Shown: positions 2,251 through 63,647 of the stretch, one piece after another | Position numbering within the stretch: position 1 is the first letter of the stretch | Layout of the letters: every line of letters begins with the position of its first letter | Assembly: GCA_965204375.1 (NCBI GenBank) | Contig: OZ241986.1 | Location: 1,696,001 to 1,760,000, forward strand | Direction: 5' to 3' | DNA: 64,000 nt | DNA from: Candidatus Latescibacterota bacterium | Lineage (GTDB): Bacteria; Latescibacterota; UBA2968 | Notes under the pieces: model-generated | Seen by the model: only the letters and a program-made list of their open reading frames with translations | The model's database searches: none | Told to the model about the DNA's origin: nothing | Made by a program: the position numbers and the translations under genes

Positions 2251-3078
2251 ATGAGAGCAAAATCAGAAACCAGTGTAATACACCGCGTCACGCGATATGA
2301 TGGCTCTATTGGCAAATCCGCAGATGATGTGCTGGTCGTAGAGGAGCCGCTTGAAATTCGCGTTGCCGGAGAATCCGTTGCCGTGACCATGCGAACGCCG
2401 GGGGATGACCGCGCCCTTGCGCTGGGATTTTTGTATGGCGAGGGCATTATTCGTGAAATTGGCGATGTCGGACGTGCGGAACACTGCGGTCGCCCGGGGA
2501 CTCCTGAGTATGGAAATGTTATTGATGTTCTCCCTCATCCGGGCGAGATACTCGATCCCGAAAGGATTCGAGCGGGACGACGAGGCACACTGACTTCATC
2601 GGCGTGTGGGGTATGTGGGCGCGAGCAGATAGAAGATATGATGCAGCGATGTCAGCCCATCAATGATCATCGCGCTGTTCGGGCAGCGATGATTTTTTCC
2701 ACGCAAGAGCAAATGCGTCAAGCCCAGTACGTGTTTGCACAAACAGGGGGCGTTCATGCTGCTGCCGCATTTTCTGAAACAGGGGATATGTATTGCTGTT
2801 TTGAAGATATTGGCCGGCACAATGCAGTAGATAAGGTTGTAGGACATTTGATCGAAACGCATAACATAGTAGAAGGGGAGGGAGTACAGATACTTGCGGT
2901 GAGCAGCAGGGCGAGTTTTGAAATCGTGCAAAAGGCCGTTGTTGCGCGCATACCTGTCGTGGTTGCCGTATCTGCAGCGAGTTCATTGGCGGCAGATCTT
3001 GCACAGGCGATGGGAATAACTCTCATTGGTTTTGCACGCGATAAAAGGATGGTCGTTTATACGGGATCTGTGCAATAG
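2251..3078 (+). CDS. fdhD: Formate dehydrogenase accessory sulfurtransferase FdhD
   Basis: VVEEPLEI, TMRTPG, SSACGVCG, TGGVHAA and EDIGRHNAVDK motifs. Confidence 0.93.
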   Translation: MRAKSETSVIHRVTRYDGSIGKSADDVLVVEEPLEIRVAGESVAVTMRTPGDDRALALGFLYGEGIIREIGDVGRAEHCGRPGTPEYGNVIDVLPHPGEILDPERIRAGRRGTLTSSACGVCGREQIEDMMQRCQPINDHRAVRAAMIFSTQEQMRQAQYVFAQTGGVHAAAAFSETGDMYCCFEDIGRHNAVDKVVGHLIETHNIVEGEGVQILAVSSRASFEIVQKAVVARIPVVVAVSAASSLAADLAQAMGITLIGFARDKRMVVYTGSVQ

Positions 3079-11600: not shown

Positions 11601-11754
11601 GCCCATGGCACTCGGCTTTGGCGAGGGGGCAAAATTGCGCGCGCCTATGGCGATTGCCGTCATTGCCGGATTGGTGACATCGACATTGATGACCTTACTC
11701 GTGATACCCACCATGTATGAACTAATTGATCGACTTCGGGGGAAATCCGCGTGA
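8689..11754 (+). CDS. RND efflux permease, AcrB/AcrD/AcrF family
   Basis: 1021 aa. GMLVDNAIVVIENI in TM4, SLFES..HP, RLRPIMMT, PMAIAVIAGL. ATGA overlap with the MFP gene. Confidence 0.95.
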   Translation: MNLPEFSTRYPVTIAMATLAVVLLGWISLDGLGTDLLPDLQTPVVTIDLAAPGKSPVEIEESYTRRLERDVSTINGVKRVYSITRSGQAVVIAEFAWDADMDYGLLDVQKRVGRYAANEDVSQLDVTREDPLALAVMRIAITADENTELDALMGTVELLIKPKLEALEGVASAEVEGGAEKEVRVSLDPYLLEAFGLSPDAVINRIAQANADVSGGTLRENQQSYLVKALGRLNDINDVREVIVGEKRGGGGTVSGDRVPVRVRDVGTVDLEYQERETIVRLNGRECVGLAIYKEAGSNTVAVVNTVLDAIDDIEADLSGMRFTTVENQARFVEDAIGEVETSAIHGAILAIFVLLIALRSWTVTLVIALAIPISVLATFSLMYFEGLSLNIMTLGGLALGAGMLVDNAIVVIENIYRHLESGEDARTASSRGASEVGVAILASTLTTVAVFLPIVYLQGLAGKLFVDQAWTVAFSLLSSLVVAMTTIPMLTSRIFRRLNTTRHTTIRSDKYYRFLNGVLNRKLIMLGVVLLILGGTGYIARELQTEFIPREDQGLFQIDLTLSEGSRVELSDQVALHAKEIVESVGGSDVAHVYALVGLNPALVSSGGEPTGPNRATLSVALHTQRSRSVSELVRDLDPILSAMPDIEVKYKLHETALEGVMGGQEAPIQVEVSGENLDILARITKELQTRIEDLPSVYNVRTSFQGGQPEIDLAIRDEVASAFGLTTQTISRTLERQLSGEVAGELSKDQRTRDIRVKYRDMDLRELHTMQIEGSDGAILTLGDIAELNIIEGPREILRENQQRVGRITGYLTEGRILSEAIADVRAIMQEMVVPSGYRVEIGGEERERAASFESLKFALLLSIVLVYMVMASLFESTLHPFTVMFSVPLAGVGVIFGFYLLGEPLSVMAYIGIIMLGGIAVNDAIVLVDRINQLRQAGLTLREAILQGGQDRLRPIMMTSATTILALLPMALGFGEGAKLRAPMAIAVIAGLVTSTLMTLLVIPTMYELIDRLRGKSA

Positions 11755-14700
11755 CACTTGCTGGTATTGCCGTTCGGCGGCCCGTGACCACGGCCATGTT
11801 TTTTCTTGGTCTGGCTATTTTAGGCGCGATTTCACTGGATCGGTTGCCCGTTCAGATATTTCCCGAACTCGTTCGCCCGGAAGTCTTTATCACAGTTACT
11901 CAGCAGGGCTACTCGCCCGAGCAGGTCGAGCGGGAATTGGTGATGCCCGTCGAGGGAGAAGTAGGCAAACTTGAAGGCATTGAGGCGTATGAGTCCTTTT
12001 CTCGTCAGAACAATGGCCAGATACGCATTTCTTACGCGCCCAATACGGATATGAAATTCGCTCTGTTGCAGCTCGAGAGCCGCATCACGCGCCTGCAATC
12101 GCTTTTGCCCGAAAGAACGCGGGTCAACATACAGCGCTTTGATTCCTCTGATCTGAGTGCCTCGGTGATGCAAATCCACGTGCTGGGCGAAGGCGATATA
12201 AACTGGCTACGCGAATTTGCCGAGGAGAAAATCAGGCCAGAATTGGAAGCGGTCGATGGCGTTGTCAACGCGCAGGTCCTGGGCGGGCAAAGGACAGCTA
12301 TTGAAATTATTGTCGATCCATTGATGCTGCAGGCGCACCAGCTTGCGATGTCTGATGTTCGCAATCGCATCAATGCTTTTAATACGCGGCGGCAATATCT
12401 CGGGCGGGTGTACGACGGCGACCAGGCTTATGCGGTCAGCATTCAGGGGCAATTTACAGACCTCGTGCAAATCCGCAGAGTCGTTATCAAACCCGAATTG
12501 CCCCTGCATCTGGGCGACATTGCCCAAATTCGCTACGGCCTTCAGGAGCGTACAGATCTGCAGCGCATCAATGGCAAACCCGCCGTTGGCATTCGCATTC
12601 AAAAAGACGATGAAGCCAATCTCATCGAACTTGCAGGAGAACTCGAAGACACCATCGAACGCGTCAACCGCGATCTCGCCTATGAAAATATCCAGCTCGT
12701 GATCAGCCAGAATCTGGCAGAGATTATGAACGAAGCCCTCAATACCCTCAAACTGGCCGCTGTTGTCGGGGGATTGCTCGGGCTTTTTGTTTTGTTCTTG
12801 TTTTTGAGAAATCTGCGTTTTGTCGCTGTTTTGCTCCTCGCCATTCCGTGTTCTTTGCTGCTCACATTCAATCTGATGTATATGTGGGATCTCAGTTTGA
12901 ATGTGCTCTCGCTGTGTGGCCTCGCGCTTGCAATTGGTATGTTGATGGACAACAGCATCGTGGTCATGGAAAATATCTTCAAGCATTTTGAACAGGGTAA
13001 ATCCCCCAAAGAAGCCGCAAAAGCCGGAACCGATGAGGTTGCACGCGCCGTTGTTGCGGCTACAGCGACTACGATTACGGTTTTTTTGCCCGTTGTTTTT
13101 ATTCAAAGCGATTTTCAGGATATCCTGCGGGAACTCGCGTTGTCCATGGTATTTCCGCTGCTTGCCTCTCTCCTTGTCGCGCTCACACTCGTGCCTGCCC
13201 TCGCATCGAAAACCCTTTCTCTCACATCTCGACCACCGACGGAAACAGGCGTATTGATCGAGATGTACACCGTATGTCTCAAAGCGGGCTTGCGCCATAG
13301 AATCAGCGTGTCACTGGGCATTGCCGGCGCGCTTGTCGTCACGCTGATCATTTCTTTTTTCTTTATGCTACAACAGGATATCCGCCAGGAAGAAAGCCGT
13401 TTTACCGTCTATATCAGCATGCCTGAAGGCACGACTATTGAAGCCCTCGATGCTGTTGTTGGCGAAATTGAAAGTGCTGTGCGAGATCTCAAAGGTATAG
13501 ATCGCTTTACGACCAGTATCAGCGAAACCCAGGCGAGTATCAATGTGGAGCTTTTGCCCTTAGCCGAACGCCCCGACCAGATTTCTGTCGATCTCATCAA
13601 GGAGAATCTCGAAGAGTCATTCGGTGATGTCCAAAATGCAATTGTGAGTTATGAGGCCATCGCGCGTACGGGTAGGGGAGGTGGTGGTGGCCGAGGCGGT
13701 GGGGGAGGCGGCGGTATTCGAGGCACCCGCCAGGCATCTGGTGGATTCAATCTGGAAGGGGGCACCCCTTCGGAAATGGCTGTAATTCGCGGCTATGATT
13801 TCACGGTGCTTCAAATGCTTGCCGACGATCTGGTCTATCGCCTCGAAGAATTGGAGGAACTCGATCCCAATAGCGTGCAGGCCGATGCAGAACGCGGCGC
13901 ATCTGAAGTGCATGTTTTGCCCGATGAAGAAGTGATGTTTGATCGGCGATTGCAGGTTCGCCAGGTGCTCAATGCAGTATCCGACGCCAATCCGCGCGGT
14001 GCGCGGTCCAATATCGCATTTCTCACACCCGAAGGTGTGGAAATCCCGATTGATATTCGCAATGTTGAAGATCCCGAAGAAGAAGGGGAAGGCATTGCGG
14101 GCTTGAGACAGACGCCGATTCTGGGTACGGGGGGGACGTACATTCCCCTTGTGGAAGTTTCGCATGTGCGCCGGGATCAGGGCAGGAGCATGATTTTGCG
14201 CACCAATCAATCGCGGCGCGTAATTGTGTCCTATCGCTTCGCCGACGAAATTTTGCAATCTCAGCCTCTGCTGGAAGCCTCCCGCGATTATGTGCAAGCT
14301 GTGGTCTCTGAAATGGTACTTCCCGAAGGGTATAGTATCGAAATGATCGAGGCAGAGGAAGAGACGATTTATTACTGGATGCTCGGCATTGCTGCACTGC
14401 TCATTTTTATGATTTTGGCCTCTTTGTTTGAATCGCTTTCTGCGCCTTTGATTATTCTGTGTACGTTGCCCACGGCAATTATTGGATCGTGCTGGGCCCT
14501 GGTCTTATCGGGTACGGGATTGACCCAACAAGAAGGCCCAATGGCACTGTTGGGATTTATTGTTTTGCTCGGTATTGCCGTCAACAATGGGATCGTGCTG
14601 ATCGATGCGATTGGAACCCTTCGCAATCGCCGCGGATTCAGGCGAGAACGCGCGGTGCTCGCGGCGAGTCGGTCGCGTGTGCGCCCCATTTTAATGACTT

Positions 14701-16478
14701 CAGCGACCACCATTTTGGGCGTTTTGCCTCTGGCACTCACGTTTGGCGGCGATTACGAAATTTGGCCGCCCTTTGCGATTACGGTGCTGGGGGGAATGGC
14801 GGTTTCAATGGTATCTACCCTCGTATTTATACCCGTGATGTACATGGGAATTGACCAGATCAAAGCCTGGTTGGCGGATATTGGCTGGTTCGGGATCGTA
14901 TTGGGGACGGCAGCCGCTGCGGGATTGACGTATTGGGTTGACGATTATTACCAGAGTTTGTTCTGGACCTGTCTTTTGGCATTGCCGGCGTGGATGTTGT
15001 GTATGAGCGTGGTCTGGATTGTGCAACGCATTTATCGCGCGCGTATGGCTTCTCTTGCTGAGATCGGGAATATTGAATATCTCGAAATTCGCAATCTGAC
15101 AAAAATTTACGGCGCGCCGGGGCGGTTTAAGCACGAATGGGATCGCTTCAAGCGCCGCAATCAGCGCCTTTTAGAGCGCGGACAGGTATTGGTAGATAAA
15201 AAGGCGATTCGAGATAGTTTGTGGTGGAAGTTACCACTTGTGGTACTTTTGATCTATTTAGAAACCTATTTTGAACAGGGATCCTGGATCTTTTTGACGG
15301 GGCTTGCTATATGGGGTCTTATACATCACCTTGTGCTTTGCGCGGCAGCTTTGCGCGATTTTCAGATTGAGAACAGATGGATATCACAAATCGCCCAATT
15401 GATTTTGCCGCTGGTCTTTGTCGCCTTTATCCATTGGCGTTTGGAACTTATATCTTTGACTATAGCCACTTCTGCAATCTACTTTCTCTATCGCATCATC
15501 GGATTTTTGGCAAATCGCGTCGCACGAGGTCGCGTTGATCCCGAACATATACCGGGAAAGTTGGGCCCTGTAAAAGGCATTGTGTACCGCGGTGCTGCAG
15601 CCGTTCCCCTGATTGGCGTTCCCCGTCCGCAATTTCAGGCTCTCGGCGGTGTGAGTCTCGATATACCACGCGGCATGTTTGGCCTTCTGGGTCCCAATGG
15701 CGCGGGCAAGACCACGCTGATGCGAATTGTCTGTCGGGTTTTGTCGTCAAATTACGGATCTGTGCTCGCCAATGGCAAAATACCGCTTACACATCGGAAT
15801 ATGCAGGGGGTGATTGGATATTTGCCGCAGCACTTTGGCCTGTATCTTCACATGTCTGCGTATAATTATCTGGAATACCGCGCGCTTTTGGAGGGATTTA
15901 AGGACGGGGTGGCACGGCGCAATCGCGTACAGGAATGTCTGGAGCAGGTCAATCTGTGGGATAGGCGCGACGATCCGATCGGTTCATTCTCCGGCGGTAT
16001 GAAACAGCGTGTGGGTATTGCACAAACTCTGTTGCACTTGCCGCAAATTATTGTGGTGGATGAACCGACAGCGGGATTGGATCCACTCGAGCGAATCCGG
16101 TTCAGAAATTTGCTGGCGCGATTTAGCCAGGAAAAGATCATTATTTTTTCCACGCATATTGTGGAAGATATTTCGGGCAGTTGCAACCAATTGGCCGTGC
16201 TGAATCACGGTAAGCTGCTTTATACGGGAACCCCGATTGAGATGCGCGATTTGGCGCGCGATAAGGTGTGGGACGCCCTGCTACCAGATCAGCGCTTTGA
16301 AGCGTTAGAACGCGATCTGGATATGATTACGCATGTGCGCGTACCCGATGGGATTCGAGTGCGATTTCTCGCCACTGATCCCATCCCAGAAGCATGTCCA
16401 GTTACGCCCACCCTCGAAGATGCGTACCTCTACCTTTTGCGACATGGCGATGAATACAAACAGTCTAACATGGCGTGA
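11751..16478 (+). CDS. RND permease fused to an extra membrane domain and a C-terminal ABC ATPase
   Basis: About 1035 aa of AcrB-type sequence (MDNSIVVMENI, RVRPILMT), then hydrophobic helices, then GPNGAGKTT / FSGGMKQR / VVDEPT / STH in one 1575-aa frame. Confidence 0.88.
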   Translation: MTLAGIAVRRPVTTAMFFLGLAILGAISLDRLPVQIFPELVRPEVFITVTQQGYSPEQVERELVMPVEGEVGKLEGIEAYESFSRQNNGQIRISYAPNTDMKFALLQLESRITRLQSLLPERTRVNIQRFDSSDLSASVMQIHVLGEGDINWLREFAEEKIRPELEAVDGVVNAQVLGGQRTAIEIIVDPLMLQAHQLAMSDVRNRINAFNTRRQYLGRVYDGDQAYAVSIQGQFTDLVQIRRVVIKPELPLHLGDIAQIRYGLQERTDLQRINGKPAVGIRIQKDDEANLIELAGELEDTIERVNRDLAYENIQLVISQNLAEIMNEALNTLKLAAVVGGLLGLFVLFLFLRNLRFVAVLLLAIPCSLLLTFNLMYMWDLSLNVLSLCGLALAIGMLMDNSIVVMENIFKHFEQGKSPKEAAKAGTDEVARAVVAATATTITVFLPVVFIQSDFQDILRELALSMVFPLLASLLVALTLVPALASKTLSLTSRPPTETGVLIEMYTVCLKAGLRHRISVSLGIAGALVVTLIISFFFMLQQDIRQEESRFTVYISMPEGTTIEALDAVVGEIESAVRDLKGIDRFTTSISETQASINVELLPLAERPDQISVDLIKENLEESFGDVQNAIVSYEAIARTGRGGGGGRGGGGGGGIRGTRQASGGFNLEGGTPSEMAVIRGYDFTVLQMLADDLVYRLEELEELDPNSVQADAERGASEVHVLPDEEVMFDRRLQVRQVLNAVSDANPRGARSNIAFLTPEGVEIPIDIRNVEDPEEEGEGIAGLRQTPILGTGGTYIPLVEVSHVRRDQGRSMILRTNQSRRVIVSYRFADEILQSQPLLEASRDYVQAVVSEMVLPEGYSIEMIEAEEETIYYWMLGIAALLIFMILASLFESLSAPLIILCTLPTAIIGSCWALVLSGTGLTQQEGPMALLGFIVLLGIAVNNGIVLIDAIGTLRNRRGFRRERAVLAASRSRVRPILMTSATTILGVLPLALTFGGDYEIWPPFAITVLGGMAVSMVSTLVFIPVMYMGIDQIKAWLADIGWFGIVLGTAAAAGLTYWVDDYYQSLFWTCLLALPAWMLCMSVVWIVQRIYRARMASLAEIGNIEYLEIRNLTKIYGAPGRFKHEWDRFKRRNQRLLERGQVLVDKKAIRDSLWWKLPLVVLLIYLETYFEQGSWIFLTGLAIWGLIHHLVLCAAALRDFQIENRWISQIAQLILPLVFVAFIHWRLELISLTIATSAIYFLYRIIGFLANRVARGRVDPEHIPGKLGPVKGIVYRGAAAVPLIGVPRPQFQALGGVSLDIPRGMFGLLGPNGAGKTTLMRIVCRVLSSNYGSVLANGKIPLTHRNMQGVIGYLPQHFGLYLHMSAYNYLEYRALLEGFKDGVARRNRVQECLEQVNLWDRRDDPIGSFSGGMKQRVGIAQTLLHLPQIIVVDEPTAGLDPLERIRFRNLLARFSQEKIIIFSTHIVEDISGSCNQLAVLNHGKLLYTGTPIEMRDLARDKVWDALLPDQRFEALERDLDMITHVRVPDGIRVRFLATDPIPEACPVTPTLEDAYLYLLRHGDEYKQSNMA

Positions 16479-54683: not shown

Positions 54684-54782
54684 TTGTAACCCAATCTTCA
54701 CTCGCGCTTAATACGGAAGAAACAATGATACCTTATTTTTTAGCATCATTATTCCGTGTCCCGTTCAGCAAGGAGTTGGGTT

Positions 54783-55631
54783 ATGGTCAACGCCTCATCT
54801 AAACAATCAGATACCAGCCTGGAACACTATCTCAAAGAACTCTCCCATTCTCACCCCATCTCTGCAGCAGAAGAATTTGAACTCGCCGTCAAAATGAAGC
54901 GAGGTGACCTCAAAGCGCGCAATCGCCTGATCAAAGCCAACTTGCGTTTTGTAGTCAATGTAGCCCTGAAATACCGCAATCAAGGCGTAGCCCTGGCCGA
55001 CCTGATCAGCGCCGGCAATATGGGTCTTATCACAGCCACCGAACGCTTTGATGAAACGCGCGGTTTCAAATTTATCTCTTATGCCGTCTGGTGGATTCGC
55101 CAATCTATTCTACAAACGCTCGCCGAACAGGGACGTATGATCCGTTTGCCCATCAACCGTTTGGATCTGCTGCGTCGGATTAAAAATTTCAGCGACCAGT
55201 ATCAATGCAATAAAGGCCACATGCCCACAGAGGCAGAAATCGCCAATGAATTTCAAATCACCGAAGATCAGGTCAGTGATATACTGTCTCACAGCCCGAT
55301 CGTATTTTCTCTGGACAAACCGATTCACGACGAAGATGTAACCCTTATTGATTTGATGCCCGACGAAGGCCAGGTCTCGCCAGATGACGCAATGTTTCAC
55401 AATGCCCTGCGAGATGAAGTCAACGATCTGCTCCATACCCTGGATAATCGCGAAGCCGACGTTATCCGTCTCTATTTCGGCCTCGAAGGCTCCAGTTGGA
55501 CACTTCAGGCCATAGCCAACAAATATAACCTCACGCGCGAGCGCGTGCGCCAAATCAAAGAAAAAGCCCTGCGCAAATTGCGTCACCCTTCTCGGGGGCG
55601 CAAACTCATCACGTATGCAGAAGCGGGATAA
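54783..55631 (+). CDS. RNA polymerase sigma70 factor, RpoD/SigA-like, lacking region 1.1
   Basis: LIKANLRFVV, ERFDETRGFKFISYAVWWIRQSI, LTRERVRQIKEKALRKLR. ATG 54783 after AGGAG. Confidence 0.92.
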   Translation: MVNASSKQSDTSLEHYLKELSHSHPISAAEEFELAVKMKRGDLKARNRLIKANLRFVVNVALKYRNQGVALADLISAGNMGLITATERFDETRGFKFISYAVWWIRQSILQTLAEQGRMIRLPINRLDLLRRIKNFSDQYQCNKGHMPTEAEIANEFQITEDQVSDILSHSPIVFSLDKPIHDEDVTLIDLMPDEGQVSPDDAMFHNALRDEVNDLLHTLDNREADVIRLYFGLEGSSWTLQAIANKYNLTRERVRQIKEKALRKLRHPSRGRKLITYAEAG

Positions 55632-55655
55632 TCCTGCTATATCCCATTAAAAATG

Positions 55656-55692
55656 AAAAGCCTCTGAAGACACGCGCTTCAGAGGCTTTTTT
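55656..55692 (+). terminator. Intrinsic terminator
   Basis: AAAAGCCTCTGAAG-loop-CTTCAGAGGCTTTTTT. Confidence 0.88.
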
Positions 55693-55707
55693 ATTTCACG
55701 CCAAAAC

Positions 55708-55736
55708 TTGATTTGTCTGAAGTTGTTATATACATT
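55708..55736 (+). promoter_or_regulatory. Putative sigma70 promoter of the nitroreductase-dsr-like operon
   Basis: TTGATT-17 bp-TACATT. Confidence 0.55.
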
Positions 55737-55782
55737 GATGTACGTAATCTAAAAGGCAAACCGACACCTCAGGAGGAAAGCA

Positions 55783-56352
55783 ATGGACGTTTTGGAAGCT
55801 ATTCACACACGGCGCACAATTTTTAAGTTTAAACCGGGCGGTGTACCCAAAGATGTGATTGAAAAAATTTATGAAGCCGGTCTTTGGGCGCCCAATCACC
55901 ATTTGACAGAACCGTGGCGATTTGTAGTTCTGGGAGAAGAAACCAAAGAAATACTGGCACAACGCTACAGCGAAATTCAGGAGGATAAAGCGGCTGAAGG
56001 TGCGAGTGATGAGGCCAGGCGAATCTTAAAAGAAGCCGGTTATGCCAAGTTCATGTCAAAGCCCACAATTATTGCAGTGGCGTGTTTGCAAGATGGCGAT
56101 GAAATCAAGAACCGAGAAGATTATGCAGCCGCGTGTTGCGCCATGCAAAATGTACAATTGGCTGCCTGGGCAGAAGGGGTCGGCATGCAGTGGAGCACAG
56201 GGCCGATTACACTGGAAGAAAACACCTATAAATTGTTGGGTGTAGATACCGACGGTGAATACATCATCGGATTTTTCTATACCGGATATCCCGATGAAAT
56301 TCCAGAACCAAGGCGAAAACCCCTCGAAGAAGTGCTGAGCTGGACGGATTGA
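55783..56352 (+). CDS. Nitroreductase family protein
   Basis: AIHTRRTI, WAPNHHLTEPWRFVV, AMQNVQLAAWAEGVG..WSTG. Confidence 0.9.
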   Translation: MDVLEAIHTRRTIFKFKPGGVPKDVIEKIYEAGLWAPNHHLTEPWRFVVLGEETKEILAQRYSEIQEDKAAEGASDEARRILKEAGYAKFMSKPTIIAVACLQDGDEIKNREDYAAACCAMQNVQLAAWAEGVGMQWSTGPITLEENTYKLLGVDTDGEYIIGFFYTGYPDEIPEPRRKPLEEVLSWTD

Positions 56353-57167
56353 TTCCACTAACCATGAATGGTTTTGAATTTTTTGTCCTGTATCGCCTCC
56401 CCTATCTCGCATTGCCTTTCTATTTCATCATGTTGGGCGTGCGAATATGGGTGTGGATGCGGTTTTACAATCCAGCACTCAAGCTATTGCCACGAGCCAG
56501 AGGATCTGTATATGGCGTGTGGAAGCAGCAGTACCGCCCAACCATTCATATTTTTCCCGGACCGCGCTCACAAAGTACAGAATGGAAGCGCGCGATCAAA
56601 GGCTTTGTTTTTTTTACCGGTCTCTATAAGCGCGATAAAGTGCTGTGGCTGGGGTCCTGGTCGCTCCATTTGGGGCTGCTCCTGATAATTGTTGCCCATG
56701 TTCGCGTGATTTTGCCGCTCGACCTGGGCCCAATCTGTTTGCACATCGCATTGATTGGCAGTGGATTGATGACTGTGTCGGGTACTTATTTGTTGCTGCG
56801 CAGGATAATCGTTCAGCGCGTGCGAGAGATTACGGACTTTCGGGACTATCTGGCGGAGTTCATCCTCCTGTCTTTTTCTGCGACAGCAATTCTCGTCGTG
56901 TTAGACGGTGGCGTGTCATCCGAAGCCTTGCGCCACTATGTGTCTGGCCTATTGACGGGCACAGCAGCAGTTATTGAAGTACCACACATTTTTGTGTGGC
57001 ACATGCTCGCTGTACAGCTCTTGTTGATTGTGATCCCATTTTCCCATCTATTGCATCTGGGCGGGATTTTTTTGAGCCGCGAATTTCTGGGCACATCCGA
57101 TACATTTGCGGGGGAATTTGGATCAGGATTTTCAGGATTAAAGGATGAACAGGATAAAAAACCATAG
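56349..57167 (+). CDS. DsrM/NarI-like di-heme cytochrome b membrane subunit
   Basis: About 5-6 TM. WLGSWSLH...VAHVR and WHMLAV...PFSHLLHLGGIFLS supply four candidate heme His. Start 56349 or 56364. Confidence 0.82.
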   Translation: MIPLTMNGFEFFVLYRLPYLALPFYFIMLGVRIWVWMRFYNPALKLLPRARGSVYGVWKQQYRPTIHIFPGPRSQSTEWKRAIKGFVFFTGLYKRDKVLWLGSWSLHLGLLLIIVAHVRVILPLDLGPICLHIALIGSGLMTVSGTYLLLRRIIVQRVREITDFRDYLAEFILLSFSATAILVVLDGGVSSEALRHYVSGLLTGTAAVIEVPHIFVWHMLAVQLLLIVIPFSHLLHLGGIFLSREFLGTSDTFAGEFGSGFSGLKDEQDKKP

Positions 57168-57225
57168 AACCAGGATGGAAGGATTAAAGGATGAACAGGA
57201 TAAAAACCACTAACCACTAACCGCT
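57123..57225 (+). repeat. Nonamer (AGGATnnnn) arrays with a duplicated 27-bp block, then a heptamer array
   Basis: AGGATTAAAGGATGAACAGGATAAAAA at 57134-57160 and 57180-57206, then ACCACTA-ACCACTA-ACCGCT. Confidence 0.85.
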
Positions 57226-58592
57226 TGAGAATCAGAAAATTGGAAAAGCCAGATAAAACAGAACGAGAAAAAAAATACATTCCATCGGGCCTGGCGGGCA
57301 CATATATGCGACGCATTGCCGAATCGGATCCGTTTGTTCGCGAGATCCAGGATGAACCGTCGGCATTGCGTTTGTACATGGATACGTGTACCAAATGCGG
57401 GGTATGCGCGCAGGAATGTCCGGTGTATTACGGGCAGCCCGATAAGCGTATGCATCCGGTGGAACGCTCTCGGCAAGTGATTCGTTTATACAAAAAGTAC
57501 ACGACATTTTGGGGACGATTTTGGAATGCCATTTTTCCAAAGCCCGATTTTGAAAATAACGATGCCGAGCTATTTGCCGAGCGTATGTACGAGTGTTTGA
57601 CGTGTCGGCGGTGTGCGGCATTTTGTCCTGTGGGAATCGATCATTCGGTGATCTCGCGCGTTGGACGTTCGCTTGTCGATTTAATGGGTTTGACGCCCCC
57701 ATCCCTTGCGCAGGGTACGCACAATTCATTTGAAACGGGCAATTTGGAAGGCGCGTCAGCCGAGGCATTTTTGGATGCGATTCAATTTATCGAAGAAGAA
57801 CTCAAAGAAGAAACAGGACGGGATATTTCAATTCCCTTAGACCGCGAAGGCGCGGAAATTTTCTTTTTACCACCATCGGGTGATGTGCTGGTATATGCTG
57901 AAAATTTAATGGGCATGGCGAAAATTTTTCACGCCATCGGCGCCGATTGGACGATGAGTTCGCGGGCATTTGACGGATCGAATTTCGGATTTACGACCGG
58001 CAATAATTTCTCAATGAAGTACGAGAACAAGCACTATATCGACGCATGCGAAAAATTGGGATGTAAACTCATGGTAATGGGTGAATGCGGGCATGCGTAT
58101 CGGGTGATGAAGTTTATGGCCAGCGAAGGACGCTGGTGGGGTGCATTGCCCTTTGAGATTACCAGTGGGTTTGAATATACGGCACAACTTATTCGCACGG
58201 GCAAACTAAAATTGGACCCCGGCAAAAACCCAGATGTCGTAACCTATCACGACGCCTGCCAATTTGCTGCCGGATGTGGGATTGTTGAAGAACCCAGAGA
58301 AATTTTGAAAGCGGCCTGTGCCGATTACCGCGAAATGCCCGATGGCGGGTACACGCAGTGGTGTTGCGGTGGTGGCGGCGGGTTGTCGGCACTGCGCTCG
58401 GTGCGCGCGTTTCGGATGGAGGTCTCGGGCAAAAAGAAAGCAGAGCAAATGCGCGAGACCGATGCGAAGATCGTATCAACTTCGTGTTTGCAGTGCCGCA
58501 CACAACTCAAAGAAATTGCGCGCCATCACAAAATGCCACTAAAAATTACCGGTGTACACGAAATGATAAACAATGCGATTATACTGGAATAA
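57225..58592 (+). CDS. DsrK/HdrD-like Fe-S oxidoreductase with CCG domains
   Basis: CTKCGVCAQECP and CLTCRRCAAFCPVGID ferredoxin motifs, GECGHAYR, YHDAC, CCGGGGG, CLQC. Start uncertain. Confidence 0.85.
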   Translation: MRIRKLEKPDKTEREKKYIPSGLAGTYMRRIAESDPFVREIQDEPSALRLYMDTCTKCGVCAQECPVYYGQPDKRMHPVERSRQVIRLYKKYTTFWGRFWNAIFPKPDFENNDAELFAERMYECLTCRRCAAFCPVGIDHSVISRVGRSLVDLMGLTPPSLAQGTHNSFETGNLEGASAEAFLDAIQFIEEELKEETGRDISIPLDREGAEIFFLPPSGDVLVYAENLMGMAKIFHAIGADWTMSSRAFDGSNFGFTTGNNFSMKYENKHYIDACEKLGCKLMVMGECGHAYRVMKFMASEGRWWGALPFEITSGFEYTAQLIRTGKLKLDPGKNPDVVTYHDACQFAAGCGIVEEPREILKAACADYREMPDGGYTQWCCGGGGGLSALRSVRAFRMEVSGKKKAEQMRETDAKIVSTSCLQCRTQLKEIARHHKMPLKITGVHEMINNAIILE

Positions 58593-58648
58593 AGGAGAGA
58601 CGTGTAAGGGCCATCCAATCCCCAGCCCCAGTCTCCAGCCCCTTTTTT

Positions 58649-59827
58649 ATGTCTGATTTAATTTATATGGACAACGCGGCGACTACGTTTCCAAAGCCCC
58701 CTGATGTGCTGGAAGACGCGCTGGCATTTTATCGCAAATACGGGGTAAATCCCGGGCGCAGTGGCACAGATCTGGCGCAAGAAGCTGAAGCCATGGTAGC
58801 AGAGACGCGTGCATCGCTCGCGTCGTTTTTTGGTGCTATGGGCACTCCCGACCAGCTTGTGTTTACACACAATGCCTCGGATGCATTGAATATTGCGATT
58901 CAGGGCACGTTGAAATCCGGCGATCACGTAATTACAACGCTTCTGGATCACAATTCGGTTTTGCGCCCGATTTACCATCTCTCAAAATATGAAGGAATTG
59001 AAGCGACTTATGTGAGCTTTGGAACAGATGGCTTTATCGCCCCCGAGGATATTGATAGGGCGATCAGACCAAACACAAAACTTGTCGTGATGACCCATGC
59101 ATCCAATGTACTGGGCACTGTGCAACCCGTAGCAGCGGTGGGCGCAATTTGCCGCGCACGCGGTGTAATTTTCTGTGTTGATGTGGCGCAAACAGCGGGC
59201 ATGTTGCCTATTGATATGGAGGCGATGCGAGCCGATATTCTGTGTTTTACTGGACACAAGTCACTCATGGGACCAACGGGTACTGGTGGGATGTACGTGC
59301 GCGAAGGCGTGACAATTGCACCGTTGCGATACGGTGGGACGGGTGTGCGGTCAGAGTATCCCGATCACCTGAGCGAGTATCCCTGGCGGTTGGAGTGTGG
59401 CACGGGCAATCTGATGGGCATTGCAGGCCTGTTGTACGCGCAGAAATGGATGCAACGCGAAGGCGTGGAAAATATTCATGCACGCGAGATGGCGTTGTTC
59501 AAACAACTCGTCAATGGCCTGCGCGAAGTCGATGGGACCATTTTGTACTGCGCTGAAAATCACGATCAACACGTACCGGTATTGTCGGTTAATATCAAAG
59601 GGATGACGGCAAACAATGTGGGTACATTGCTGGATGTGAAGTTCAATGTGGCAACGCGCACGGGATTGCAATGCGCGCCAAAGGTACATGAAACCCTGGG
59701 CACGAAAGCGATGAAGGGCACTGTGCGACTTTCGCTGGGTCCCTTCAATACCGAAGCGCATATTGAAACTGTGATCGAAGGCCTGAGCGATATATCCAAA
59801 CGACATGGGCGAAGCGGTGATTGCTAA
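58649..59827 (+). CDS. Cysteine desulfurase-family PLP enzyme (class V aminotransferase)
   Basis: IYMDNAATTFPKP, NPGRSG, HASNVLG, DVAQTAG, TGHKSL (PLP Lys), RTGLQCAP (catalytic Cys). Confidence 0.9.
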   Translation: MSDLIYMDNAATTFPKPPDVLEDALAFYRKYGVNPGRSGTDLAQEAEAMVAETRASLASFFGAMGTPDQLVFTHNASDALNIAIQGTLKSGDHVITTLLDHNSVLRPIYHLSKYEGIEATYVSFGTDGFIAPEDIDRAIRPNTKLVVMTHASNVLGTVQPVAAVGAICRARGVIFCVDVAQTAGMLPIDMEAMRADILCFTGHKSLMGPTGTGGMYVREGVTIAPLRYGGTGVRSEYPDHLSEYPWRLECGTGNLMGIAGLLYAQKWMQREGVENIHAREMALFKQLVNGLREVDGTILYCAENHDQHVPVLSVNIKGMTANNVGTLLDVKFNVATRTGLQCAPKVHETLGTKAMKGTVRLSLGPFNTEAHIETVIEGLSDISKRHGRSGDC

Positions 59828-59842
59828 AAGGTCAGGTGCGGA

Positions 59843-60166
59843 ATGGCGTATGAGATTGTGACGCTGGGTGGCAAAGAAATTGAGGTGGATGAAGATGGAT
59901 TTATCCAGCAACCCGAGCTTTGGGACGAAGATGTAGCGCGCGATCTGGCCCAACAAGATGGCATTGAGGAGATGACCGCAGATCACTGGCAGGTAGTATA
60001 TTACATCCGCAATTACTGGTTGAAATTTGAAATCGCCCCATTGATCCGTCGTTTATGCAAAGAGACAGAGAAAGATATCGATACAATTTACGATCTGTTT
60101 ACGGCAGGTCCCGCAGATGGCGCGTGTAAAATCGCGGGCTTGCCAACGCCTACGGGGTGTACGTGA
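59843..60166 (+). CDS. dsrC: DsrC-type sulfur carrier (TusE/DsrC/DsvC family) with both C-terminal cysteines
   Basis: VDEDGF...W.EDVA..LA...MTADHW.VV.YIR...LF..GP..GACKIAGLPTPTGC (C-X10-C). Confidence 0.85.
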   Translation: MAYEIVTLGGKEIEVDEDGFIQQPELWDEDVARDLAQQDGIEEMTADHWQVVYYIRNYWLKFEIAPLIRRLCKETEKDIDTIYDLFTAGPADGACKIAGLPTPTGCT

Positions 60167-62083: not shown

Positions 62084-62914
62084 TCAGTTAATAAATAACG
62101 GCTGATCGGATCGCGGTACAATACCCGCTTCTTCCGCACGCGCAAAAAGATCGACCAGTGCAGCCTCACCATCTGCGCCATAATCCAACGTGTAGTCATT
62201 GACGTAGAGATCGATGTGTTGCTGTATCACGGCTTCGTCTATCTCCTGTGCGTGCTGGCGAATGTAATTTTTAACTGCACCAAGATTAGAATGTGCATAC
62301 TCCACACTGGCGCAAAGAGATACATCAATCTGTTGAATTTTTTCTACACCGAGATCGCGTCGGGCGAGAATACCGCCGAGCGGAATGGGATGTCCCGTAG
62401 ATCCCTCCCACCATTCGCCCAGGTCAATGACTTTGTGCAGACCATAATCGGGATAGGTAAATCGCGATTCGTGGATAATCACGCCGGCATCAATATCACC
62501 TTTTTGCGTGGCCTCCATAATCTCGTGAAAAGGCATTGCGACGAGGTTGTCAAGCGCGGGATTAAAGAGACGCAGCAAGAGCGCAGCCGTGGTGAGCTCG
62601 CCTGGAATAGCGATGCGTTTTCCCAACAAATCGCGTGGATCAAGGGAGTCGGACGCGATAACGAGCGGGCCACACCCGCGCCCCAATGCCCCCCCTGAAT
62701 GCAACAGGCAATACCGGTCTCGCATAAATGCAAGCGCGTGGAATGATATTTTGGTCATATCCAATTTACCTGCCATAGCCATGCGATTCAAGGTCTCAAT
62801 ATCTTCGAGAATCTCGCGGCATCTGGGCGCGCCGTCAATTTTCCCGTGAACCAGACCGTAAAAAATATACGTGTCATTGGGACAAGGAGAATAACCGAGA
62901 GAAATGCGAGACAT
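62084..62914 (-). CDS. mqnD: 1,4-dihydroxy-6-naphthoate synthase (futalosine pathway)
   Basis: LGYSPCPNDT, GGALGRGCGP, IIHESRFTY, DLGEWW, PIPLGGI, HIDLYVN. Start MSRIS at 62914. Confidence 0.93.
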   Translation of the reverse strand: MSRISLGYSPCPNDTYIFYGLVHGKIDGAPRCREILEDIETLNRMAMAGKLDMTKISFHALAFMRDRYCLLHSGGALGRGCGPLVIASDSLDPRDLLGKRIAIPGELTTAALLLRLFNPALDNLVAMPFHEIMEATQKGDIDAGVIIHESRFTYPDYGLHKVIDLGEWWEGSTGHPIPLGGILARRDLGVEKIQQIDVSLCASVEYAHSNLGAVKNYIRQHAQEIDEAVIQQHIDLYVNDYTLDYGADGEAALVDLFARAEEAGIVPRSDQPLFIN

Positions 62915-62927
62915 GGTGAACCTCGTG

Positions 62928-63647
62928 TCATAGGGCCTCAATGAATTTTCGCGCTGCGATTTGCACCCTCTGGACAGCGCGAGGAATATCCCAGGCGTCA
63001 TTGTTGCGATCTTCTACAAGATTACTAATAGCGCGCAATTCGAGAAATGGAACGGCATAAAGCGTGCAGACATGCGCTGCAGCCGCGCCCTCCATGTTTT
63101 CACATATCGCATTGAAACGCGCTGCCAGTTCATTGCCAATATCCACGCGCCCCGTACATTGTTGCACCGAAACAAAAGGACCCTGCACAACGCGTTCACC
63201 CGATTGTTCGAGTATGTGTTGCGCTCTGGCGACAAGCGCGGGATCAATAGGATACACATTGTAATAATCGCGGTTGGTCGATAGGACGGGAATGCCGATC
63301 TCATCGGCAGGCAACCAGCCAGCAGGTGTGATAACACCTAAATCGCCATAATTTTCCTCGGTTGCAAGTGCGAGATCGCCCTTGTCCAGGCCACTGCCGA
63401 GATAAGCACCACCAATGCCGATTTGCAAGACGAGTTCAGGATCGATTTTTTGCAGTGCAACAGTCAGAGCCTGCGCCGTATTGACCGCGCCAATACCCGT
63501 TTCAACCAAAACAACGGGCCTGATGCCAATCATACCGCGAACCCAGGCGCGATGTCCCCTGCGCTGTGTTGTCACCTCTTGAAGGCTATCGCGCAAACGC
63601 TGTTGCTCATAAGCCGTCGCTGTCAGGATGAGCAGAGGATCGGGCAT
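62928..63647 (-). CDS. mqnB: Futalosine hydrolase
   Basis: GIGAVNTA, GIGGAY, ENMEGAAAAH, ELRAISNLVEDR...WDIP; adjacent to mqnD. Confidence 0.9.
   Translation of the reverse strand: MPDPLLILTATAYEQQRLRDSLQEVTTQRRGHRAWVRGMIGIRPVVLVETGIGAVNTAQALTVALQKIDPELVLQIGIGGAYLGSGLDKGDLALATEENYGDLGVITPAGWLPADEIGIPVLSTNRDYYNVYPIDPALVARAQHILEQSGERVVQGPFVSVQQCTGRVDIGNELAARFNAICENMEGAAAAHVCTLYAVPFLELRAISNLVEDRNNDAWDIPRAVQRVQIAARKFIEAL

Follow-up and report, generated by a model that had tools for sequence, protein, structure and literature searches.

DsrC and the membrane complex DsrMK are treated as markers of sulfur metabolism that depends on the sulfite reductase DsrAB. DsrMKJOP is a menadiol:DsrC-trisulfide oxidoreductase that releases sulfide, and the cysteine of its T/GECGH motif is conserved (PMC10861901). 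In complexes of DsrM and DsrK that lack JOP, DsrM is predicted to have a NarI-like quinol site and probably oxidises quinol, and DsrK reduces a persulfide-like intermediate at a single non-cubane cluster (preprint 10.64898/2026.08.25.746951). In the DsrMK-only clades, 7 of 74 assemblies lack DsrAB (PMC10504309). The second cysteine of DsrC is found almost exclusively alongside DsrAB, TusE-type proteins of DsrAB-less organisms nearly always lack the first cysteine, and two-cysteine DsrC/TusE homologues without DsrAB are described as rare, occurring in Methylococcaceae, Marinobacter and Lawsonia (PMC3397948). Tools such as DiSCo count a DsrC in a DsrAB-less genome as a false positive (PMC8477390). 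Here we describe a 64,000-nucleotide stretch of DNA from a Candidatus Latescibacterota bacterium (the window), in which genes for a DsrMK-type reductase and a two-cysteine DsrC enclose a gene for a cysteine desulfurase. The predicted proteins of this cassette point to an undescribed way in which an uncultivated Latescibacterota family may pass cysteine sulfur to the quinone pool.

The window belongs to a closed, single-contig Latescibacterota chromosome of 6.34 Mb. The first-pass annotation of the window had read five genes between positions 55783 and 60166 as one apparent operon, and the open reading frame (ORF) list, Pfam and NCBIfam agree that all five are real and lie exactly there, all on the + strand and in the same orientation. 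The features are as follows.

55656..55690, no strand assigned: terminator-like perfect hairpin of 14 pairs, from a pattern scan only
55783..56352, + strand: nitroreductase-family gene, 189 aa (PF00881, 2.1e-27)
56349..57167, + strand: DsrM-like (NarI-type) di-haem cytochrome b membrane subunit, 272 aa, TTG start (PF02665, Nitrate_red_gam, 2.9e-11)
57225..58592, + strand: DsrK-like catalytic iron-sulfur (Fe-S) subunit of the dsrK2 paralogue type, 455 aa (Fer4_8 and one CCG domain; NF045796)
58652..59827, + strand: accessory class-V (SufS-like, type II) cysteine desulfurase, 391 aa (Aminotran_5, 6.4e-89; TIGR01977)
59843..60166, + strand: two-cysteine DsrC, 107 aa (PF04358, 3.9e-33)

The intergenic spacing from the nitroreductase gene to dsrC is -4, 57, 59 and 15 nt, the TTG start of the dsrM-like gene overlapping the nitroreductase stop by 4 nt. 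The desulfurase frame is open from 58358 to 59827, and the Aminotran_5 match starts at the ATG at 58652. As shown below, the functional unit consists of the last four genes, the dsrM-like, dsrK-like, desulfurase and dsrC genes. Judged by its predicted proteins, this cassette is a mosaic of a K2-type reductase, a canonical-type two-cysteine carrier with two clade-specific lysine losses, and a SufS-like desulfurase.

The predicted carrier is a DsrC of the canonical two-cysteine type. Its tail ends GACKIAGLPTPTGCT, which gives the C-X10-C arrangement with the second cysteine in the penultimate position. Both tail cysteines, C95 and C106, are present as first annotated and do not vary in any of the 41 sequences aligned; both also occur in all 24 loci of the Latescibacterota clade described below that reach dsrC. 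The protein scores 110 bits with the TusE/DsrC/DsvC model TIGR03342 (cut-off 53.5) and 76.5 bits with the TusE equivalog NF008562 (cut-off 191), and it shares 58-68% identity with canonical 105-aa DsrCs ending LPKPTGCV. The clade-specific tail is LPTPTGCT, and the stretch AGLPTPTGCT has two mismatches to the DiSCo tail motif AGLPKPTG(not N)CA, which tolerates at most one; in DiSCo, the possession of two cysteines can stand in for the motif (PMC8477390). Co-occurrence with DsrAB, another criterion for a DsrC, was found neither in the closed genome nor in any of 21 relatives. A whole-genome family search returned the window DsrC as the sole DsrC-family gene of its genome.

The reductase genes had been annotated as DsrM- and DsrK-like. 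Those names stand insofar as the best-matching models are NF038037 for DsrM (55.3 bits, cut-off 300; PF02665 passes its own threshold) and NF045796 for DsrK (313.3 bits, cut-off 400; TmcB reaches 220.6 and HmcF 201.7), but neither subunit reaches its cut-off and DsrK groups with proteins of the dsrM2K2 type. In DsrM, H107, H117, H218 and H236 are invariant in an 11-sequence alignment that includes K2-type and canonical DsrM. DsrK carries two CX2CX2CX3CP motifs, ECGH (C288, H290), HDxC (D343, C345), CC (C380/381) and CxxC (C421/424), all invariant or nearly invariant in the alignment. The residues E287-C288-G289-H290 and one CCG domain are present, D331 and D343, either of which may be the counterpart of the conserved aspartate of the DsrK signature (D500 in A. 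fulgidus), are invariant, and three Fe-S clusters are predicted. The C288/H290 pair of ECGH corresponds to the conserved T/GECGH cysteine (PMC10861901) and to the C329/H331 pair (preprint 10.64898/2026.08.25.746951). In a search of the PDB, the one relative of DsrK was 9ojn_A, matched over the CCG domain. The gene is the sole DsrK-like gene of the genome by whole-genome family search, and its product shares 31-34% identity with the canonical DsrKs sampled.

To place DsrK, a quick maximum-likelihood tree (LG+G4, midpoint root, no HdrD, TmcB or HmcF outgroup) was built from 106 of 121 extracted sequences, 15 near-identical Latescibacterota rows being left out, with branch support given solely by the Shimodaira-Hasegawa-like approximate likelihood ratio test (SH-aLRT). 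The Latescibacterota sequences form a clade of 15 rows (support 100, stem 0.91) that is nested, together with the K2-type family, in a clade of 85 rows (SH-aLRT 99), apart from the four canonical DsrK rows and from receiver fusions. The predicted DsrK of the window accordingly groups with the K2-type paralogues and not with the DsrK that serves DsrAB.

The next relatives of this DsrK, at 47-54% identity, belong to a large family annotated merely as Fe-S proteins, and a metagenome scan returned 73 K2-type loci (L042-L114, for example L053:4264-9335 and L082:1268-5324). Among the 48 of these with at least 1.5 kb of upstream sequence, 39 have DsrC-like and DsrM-like genes directly upstream, usually with a MerR/HTH_17 regulator gene first. 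Many K2-type loci also hold a fused double-DsrC without the terminal cysteine, a Macro-domain gene and an HdrD-receiver fusion. Eight of the 73 lie beside dsrA/B/L/N genes, and others among unrelated genes on long contigs. The DsrC-like proteins of this family are only 25-41% identical to the window DsrC, and their tail reads LFPCG...GAYRLAGLPRPxGC, with a tyrosine at the position of the first cysteine and an extra upstream cysteine. Paralogues of dsrMK are reportedly treated by Pereira et al. in 2011. The putative K2-type module probably corresponds to the dsrM2 and dsrK2 paralogues, which two papers name, without a function, in sulfate reducers and Acidobacteria (PMC6018796, PMC6372793).

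The desulfurase scores 422.9 bits with the cysteine desulfurase family model TIGR01977 (cut-off 377). The second-best model is SclA (NF040779) at 332.6 bits, below its cut-off of 525, and SufS follows at 253. H202-K203 and C341, which include the pyridoxal phosphate lysine and the catalytic cysteine, are invariant in 45 sequences, and the alignment of the protein with the short-loop RSGHHCA region of the solved desulfurase chain 5b7s_A is free of gaps. Elsewhere in the genome, a suf operon encodes SufS together with SufBD, and the IscS gene has MoeB- and ApbC-like genes as neighbours; the window enzyme is therefore a third, accessory desulfurase and not the housekeeping one. Type II desulfurases need a dedicated persulfide acceptor, which is usually encoded next to them.

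No dsrAB, dsrEFH or dsrJOP-like genes were seen in the rest of the window, as the first-pass annotation had stated; the remaining content is housekeeping. That annotation had named a canonical dsrAB locus elsewhere in the genome as a reason to abandon its proposal, and none was found. Across the whole closed genome, the best matches to dsrA (32.2 bits) and dsrB (37.1 bits) are below cut-off and fall in one 744-aa ORF, a NirA-like protein that is the only NIR_SIR protein of the genome. The best aprA match likewise reaches 27.5 bits against a cut-off of 641.75, and a sat-like gene scores 259.5 bits (cut-off 322.95). There is one DsrE-like gene and no TusBCD set. Among the 21 cluster-bearing relatives reached through their loci, none has dsrA over cut-off. 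The absence of DsrAB is not due to genome incompleteness, because the genomes are closed. In a sample of the phylum, dsrA passes the cut-off in one of 168 genomes, G024, which belongs to another family, and canonical Dsr is thus very rare in Latescibacterota.

The dsrA gene of G024 (L140, G024:C258:1-2093) scores 466.9 bits and has a dsrB-like neighbour. A different DsrC cluster occurs in this genome and in four genomes of family f10; it comprises a 409-aa Pyr_redox_2 flavoprotein, a familyless protein of 224-250 aa and a DsrC-like gene, with no DsrK-like gene at E<=1e-40. Loci of this type are L141:8398-11218, L142:6910-9649, L143:6952-9718 and L144:5109-6909. A DrsE_2 gene comes next in the three f10 loci scanned, a FadL-type porin is encoded nearby in L141 and L142, and dsrA, present in G024, is absent from the four f10 genomes.

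The order of the cassette genes is kept among Latescibacterota relatives. Genome contigs gave 23 loci at 82-99% DsrK identity, of which 21 have the order dsrM-dsrK-desulfurase-dsrC and two end inside dsrK. A profile scan of metagenome contigs gave seven further loci (73-89% identity), six with the desulfurase gene after dsrK and one ending at dsrK. When these are pooled, the desulfurase gene follows dsrK in 27 of 30 loci, the other three ending at or inside dsrK, and dsrC comes next in 24, the other six being cut by contig ends; there are no counter-examples, although many of the loci come from close relatives, some possibly from the same population. The desulfurase linkage claimed at first annotation is therefore conserved within one family; outside it, the linkage is nearly absent, a desulfurase gene being found in 2 of 45 informative loci. 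These cases among K2-type loci, L049 (42% identity, about 6 kb off) and L082 (55% identity, divergent strand), were set aside as too few, and the close kin of L082, L100 and L057, lack the gene.

A DsrK-like gene is present in 29 of the 168 sampled genomes, all of family f1 (28 of 30 genomes besides that of the window, in five of six genera), and in none of the 137 genomes outside f1. DsrC occurs in 27 of the 30 f1 genomes. No desulfurase homologue was found at E<=1e-60 in any of seven relatives tested that lack the module (two of genus g6 and five of family f2, six of them assembled in one or two contigs), and in both genus-g5 genomes a desulfurase homologue adjoins dsrK. Three of the four components, the desulfurase, DsrK and DsrC, are thus present or missing as a set. 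All four genes are under purifying selection, the ratio of nonsynonymous to synonymous substitution rates (dN/dS) being 0.03-0.21 at dS from 0.7 to saturation.

The nitroreductase gene, which had been counted as a member of the operon, falls outside the unit, because relatives without the module keep orthologues of it and because its adjacency varies. Orthologues at 65-71% identity occur in all five module-less relatives tested. At L023-L025 the gene and dsrM are 2-4 kb apart, and at L022 and L041 no nitroreductase gene was found. In the module-less sister genus g6 (L145 of genome G091 and L146 of G092), the nitroreductase gene and garR are convergent with a PhyH-family dioxygenase gene between them, and the four-gene cassette in the window's genus fills the slot that this gene holds in g6. 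For the same reasons we rejected the idea that the nitroreductase is a subunit for electron input. It is a resident gene next to the cassette and may share a transcript with it in the window's genus.

Our preferred reading, to which we give somewhat less than an even chance, is that the cassette runs a DsrC redox cycle independent of DsrAB. In this three-step cycle the desulfurase would persulfurate DsrC, DsrMK would re-reduce DsrC with menaquinol, and sulfide would be let out. We propose it because of the tight spacing of the genes, their linkage, co-inheritance and purifying selection, the catalytic residues that have been kept, the lack of DsrAB, the precedent of IscS and DsrC, and the literature on DsrMK. 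The SufS-like enzyme would remove sulfur from L-cysteine and hold it as the sulfane sulfur of a persulfide. The acceptor would be the penultimate Cys106 of DsrC, as suggested by gene order, by co-inheritance and by a published experiment in which Escherichia coli IscS and cysteine persulfurated Allochromatium vinosum DsrC at its penultimate cysteine in vitro (PMC3397948). Cys95 might then resolve the persulfide, yielding a Cys95-Cys106 disulfide and sulfide; alternatively, the non-cubane [4Fe-4S] site of DsrK might reduce the persulfide without that intermediate. By homology with DsrMK(JOP), the di-haem DsrM would oxidise menaquinol and pass electrons to DsrK, and DsrC would emerge reduced. 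On balance, cysteine and menaquinol would be converted to alanine, sulfide and menaquinone, and the cell would gain a route for cysteine sulfur together with a sink for quinol electrons.

Several observations weigh against this cycle. Quinol-driven reduction is not clearly downhill, because menaquinol stands at about -70 mV and organic trisulfides at -346 mV (PMC10861901). DsrM and DsrK both score below their NCBIfam equivalog cut-offs, and the DsrC tail has lost two lysines that are conserved in canonical DsrC. In the K2 family the DsrC-like partner differs, a tyrosine replacing the first cysteine, and a desulfurase gene lies near the module in only 2 of the 45 loci that are informative (at least 3 kb of flank). 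The linkage represents one evolutionary origin in a single family, conservation among kin is weak evidence, and g6, the sister genus, does without the cassette. We consider it unlikely that the cassette goes further and acts as a respiratory menaquinol:DsrC-persulfide reductase, with cysteine sulfane sulfur as terminal electron acceptor and an energy-conserving redox loop in which DsrM would oxidise quinol at its outer face and DsrK would consume protons. Were this respiratory function real, a DsrC cycle would have evolved, or survived, without any sulfite reductase, and the widespread dsrM2K2 paralogue family would have its first function.

The desulfurase could instead load DsrC as a TusE-like carrier for a thiolation enzyme acting on tRNA, a cofactor or a natural product, with DsrMK repairing oxidised carrier. 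The route from IscS through the Tus proteins to TusE is established (PMC3397948), and with one DsrE-like gene and no TusBCD set in the genome, a shortened relay from the desulfurase is conceivable. This function is nevertheless doubtful: DsrC stays below the TusE cut-off, its first cysteine is invariant, unlike that of the TusE-type proteins of DsrAB-less organisms (PMC3397948), the cassette encodes no thiolation enzyme, module-less relatives manage without it, and it includes a membrane quinol-linked reductase, a component not known from biosynthetic sulfur relays. As a selenocysteine lyase the desulfurase would give DsrC Se(0) to carry as a selenopersulfide, which DsrMK would reduce to selenide for SelD. 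SclA is the second-best desulfurase model, and the organism makes selenoproteins; SelD contains an in-frame TGA (L118:6183-7807; G000:C1:5302183-5303906), with tRNA-SeC directly downstream and a ResA-like WAxxUGC-type gene upstream. Against this stand the SclA score below its cut-off, the 3.5 Mb that separate selD from the cassette, and the presence of a selenocysteine-type SelD in all five module-less relatives examined, from which it follows that selenoprotein synthesis is independent of the cassette; we regard selenium handling as improbable.

Desulfurases specialised for single enzymes are known, and the window enzyme might, like NifS in the case of nitrogenase, supply sulfur only for building the DsrK clusters, leaving DsrC to be oxidised by another reaction. 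The three Fe-S clusters predicted in DsrK would suit such a role, but no NifU/IscU/SufU-type scaffold gene is found in the cassette, SUF and ISC are encoded elsewhere, no desulfurase gene lies near 43 of the 45 K2-family loci that are informative, and the desulfurase gene of the window is placed between dsrK and dsrC, only 15 nt from dsrC. A dedicated maturation enzyme is in our judgement as improbable as a selenium function. Chances are slimmer that the complex runs in the oxidative direction, with DsrMK oxidising a DsrC persulfide to the trisulfide and electrons going to menaquinone. That step has been proposed for Dsr-type sulfur oxidisers (PMC6018796, PMC8477390), and a low trisulfide potential would make it downhill (PMC10861901); without DsrAB, DsrEFH or AprA, however, the trisulfide has no known outlet, and for the same reason the oxidation through menaquinone that the first-pass annotation had allowed finds no support. 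Finally, every locus that keeps the gene order comes from one family, as would be expected of mere neighbours inherited together with no functional link. The order nevertheless persists at saturated dS with dN/dS of 0.03-0.21, three components co-vary and the spacing is tight, so that the lack of any functional link seems very improbable.

As to the surroundings of the cassette, the hairpin at 55656-55690 lies between a sigma-factor gene (54756-55631) and the nitroreductase gene; being terminator-like by pattern scan, it is taken as the boundary at which the transcription unit begins. A promoter scan was uninformative, with two sites against 8.1 expected by chance. Downstream of dsrC is a convergent garR gene, encoding a homologue of 2-hydroxy-3-oxopropionate reductase. 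At 62084-63647 lie mqnB (TIGR03664, 221.8 bits, cut-off 124.7) and an MqnA/MqnD-family gene (PF02621, 2.9e-80), menaquinone genes whose proximity had been noted earlier as perhaps coincidental. The genes stay close together only in near relatives, not in L041, one of the most distant members, and we take the proximity for a coincidence.

RNA libraries from four runs in two studies (coral and sponge metagenomes) contain contigs of relatives, 90-99% alike, in which all five genes are represented and which run across the junctions between the nitroreductase and dsrM genes and between the dsrK and desulfurase genes. They were not accepted as proof of transcription, since DNA may be present in the libraries and two contigs of 12-13 kb span convergent genes; nor was a near-empty bin at 55571-55741 taken as a sign that transcription starts there. 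A 27-base motif occurs in tandem (57134-57160 and 57180-57206) at the 3' end of dsrM. It has three exact copies genome-wide, 13 with at most two mismatches and 37 with at most four, and looks like a short dispersed repeat. About 40 bases at this motif are common to many unrelated RNA-library contigs, which results in a depth spike and many loose ends. Farther away in the window, positions 11751-16478 hold a 1575-aa open frame with an RND efflux permease at residues 6-1035 and an ABC-transporter ATPase at 1294-1507; this represents an unusual fusion, unless ORF picking has joined two genes. An FdhD-type sulfurtransferase gene at 2251-3078 (NF001943, 276.6 bits, cut-off 269) lies 53 kb from the cassette, and no link between the two was seen.

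These DsrAB-free genomes retain a canonical-type two-cysteine DsrC and a DsrMK-type reductase, with a plausible alternative sulfur donor encoded in the same operon. If DsrC does receive sulfur from the desulfurase and is re-reduced by DsrMK, then the DsrC species open to reduction by DsrMK-type complexes extend beyond those made by DsrAB, the dsrM2K2 family gains a testable function, and cysteine sulfur reaches sulfide by way of the quinone pool. The four cassette proteins are small enough for heterologous expression, which makes the question directly testable. In the full-text literature, from which subscription journals and supplements were out of reach, we found neither a desulfurase-dsrC-dsrMK unit nor Dsr genes in this Latescibacterota family.

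The nearest DsrK relatives of the cassette, probably the dsrM2/dsrK2 paralogues, match it in size (about 445 aa and about 235 aa) and in having a DsrC-family gene as partner; they differ in their order (MerR-type regulator, DsrC-like, M, K) and in having no desulfurase gene, apart from the two loci of 45 with one nearby. The DsrC and DsrMK(JOP) of sulfate and sulfite reducers share with it the two-cysteine DsrC, the NarI-type di-haem subunit, and a DsrK with two ferredoxin clusters, one CCG domain and ECGH, and the DsrMK-only complexes also share the lack of JOP subunits. Unlike these systems, the cassette has no DsrAB as a source of trisulfide, a desulfurase stands in the place of the sulfur donor, DsrK belongs to another clade, and the DsrC tail reads LPTPTGCT in place of LPKPTGCV. 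In the IscS-TusA-TusBCD-TusE-MnmA relay of E. coli, as in the cycle proposed here, a desulfurase feeds the penultimate cysteine of a DsrC-family carrier, but the cassette lacks TusA and TusBCD, has the second cysteine and a membrane reductase, and scores below the TusE cut-off. Type II desulfurases are known in pairs with their acceptors, SufS with SufE or SufU and CsdA with CsdE. The cassette is like these pairs in that a SufS-like enzyme stands beside a small cysteine-bearing candidate acceptor; it is unlike them in that the candidate has the DsrC fold and no Fe-S scaffold comes after it. HdrED of methanogens likewise joins a b-type cytochrome to a CCG-domain subunit and reduces a disulfide with a membrane carrier (PMC10861901), whereas the substrate of the cassette enzyme would be a protein-bound cysteine pair or persulfide, reduced at one non-cubane cluster rather than two, as its single CCG domain suggests.

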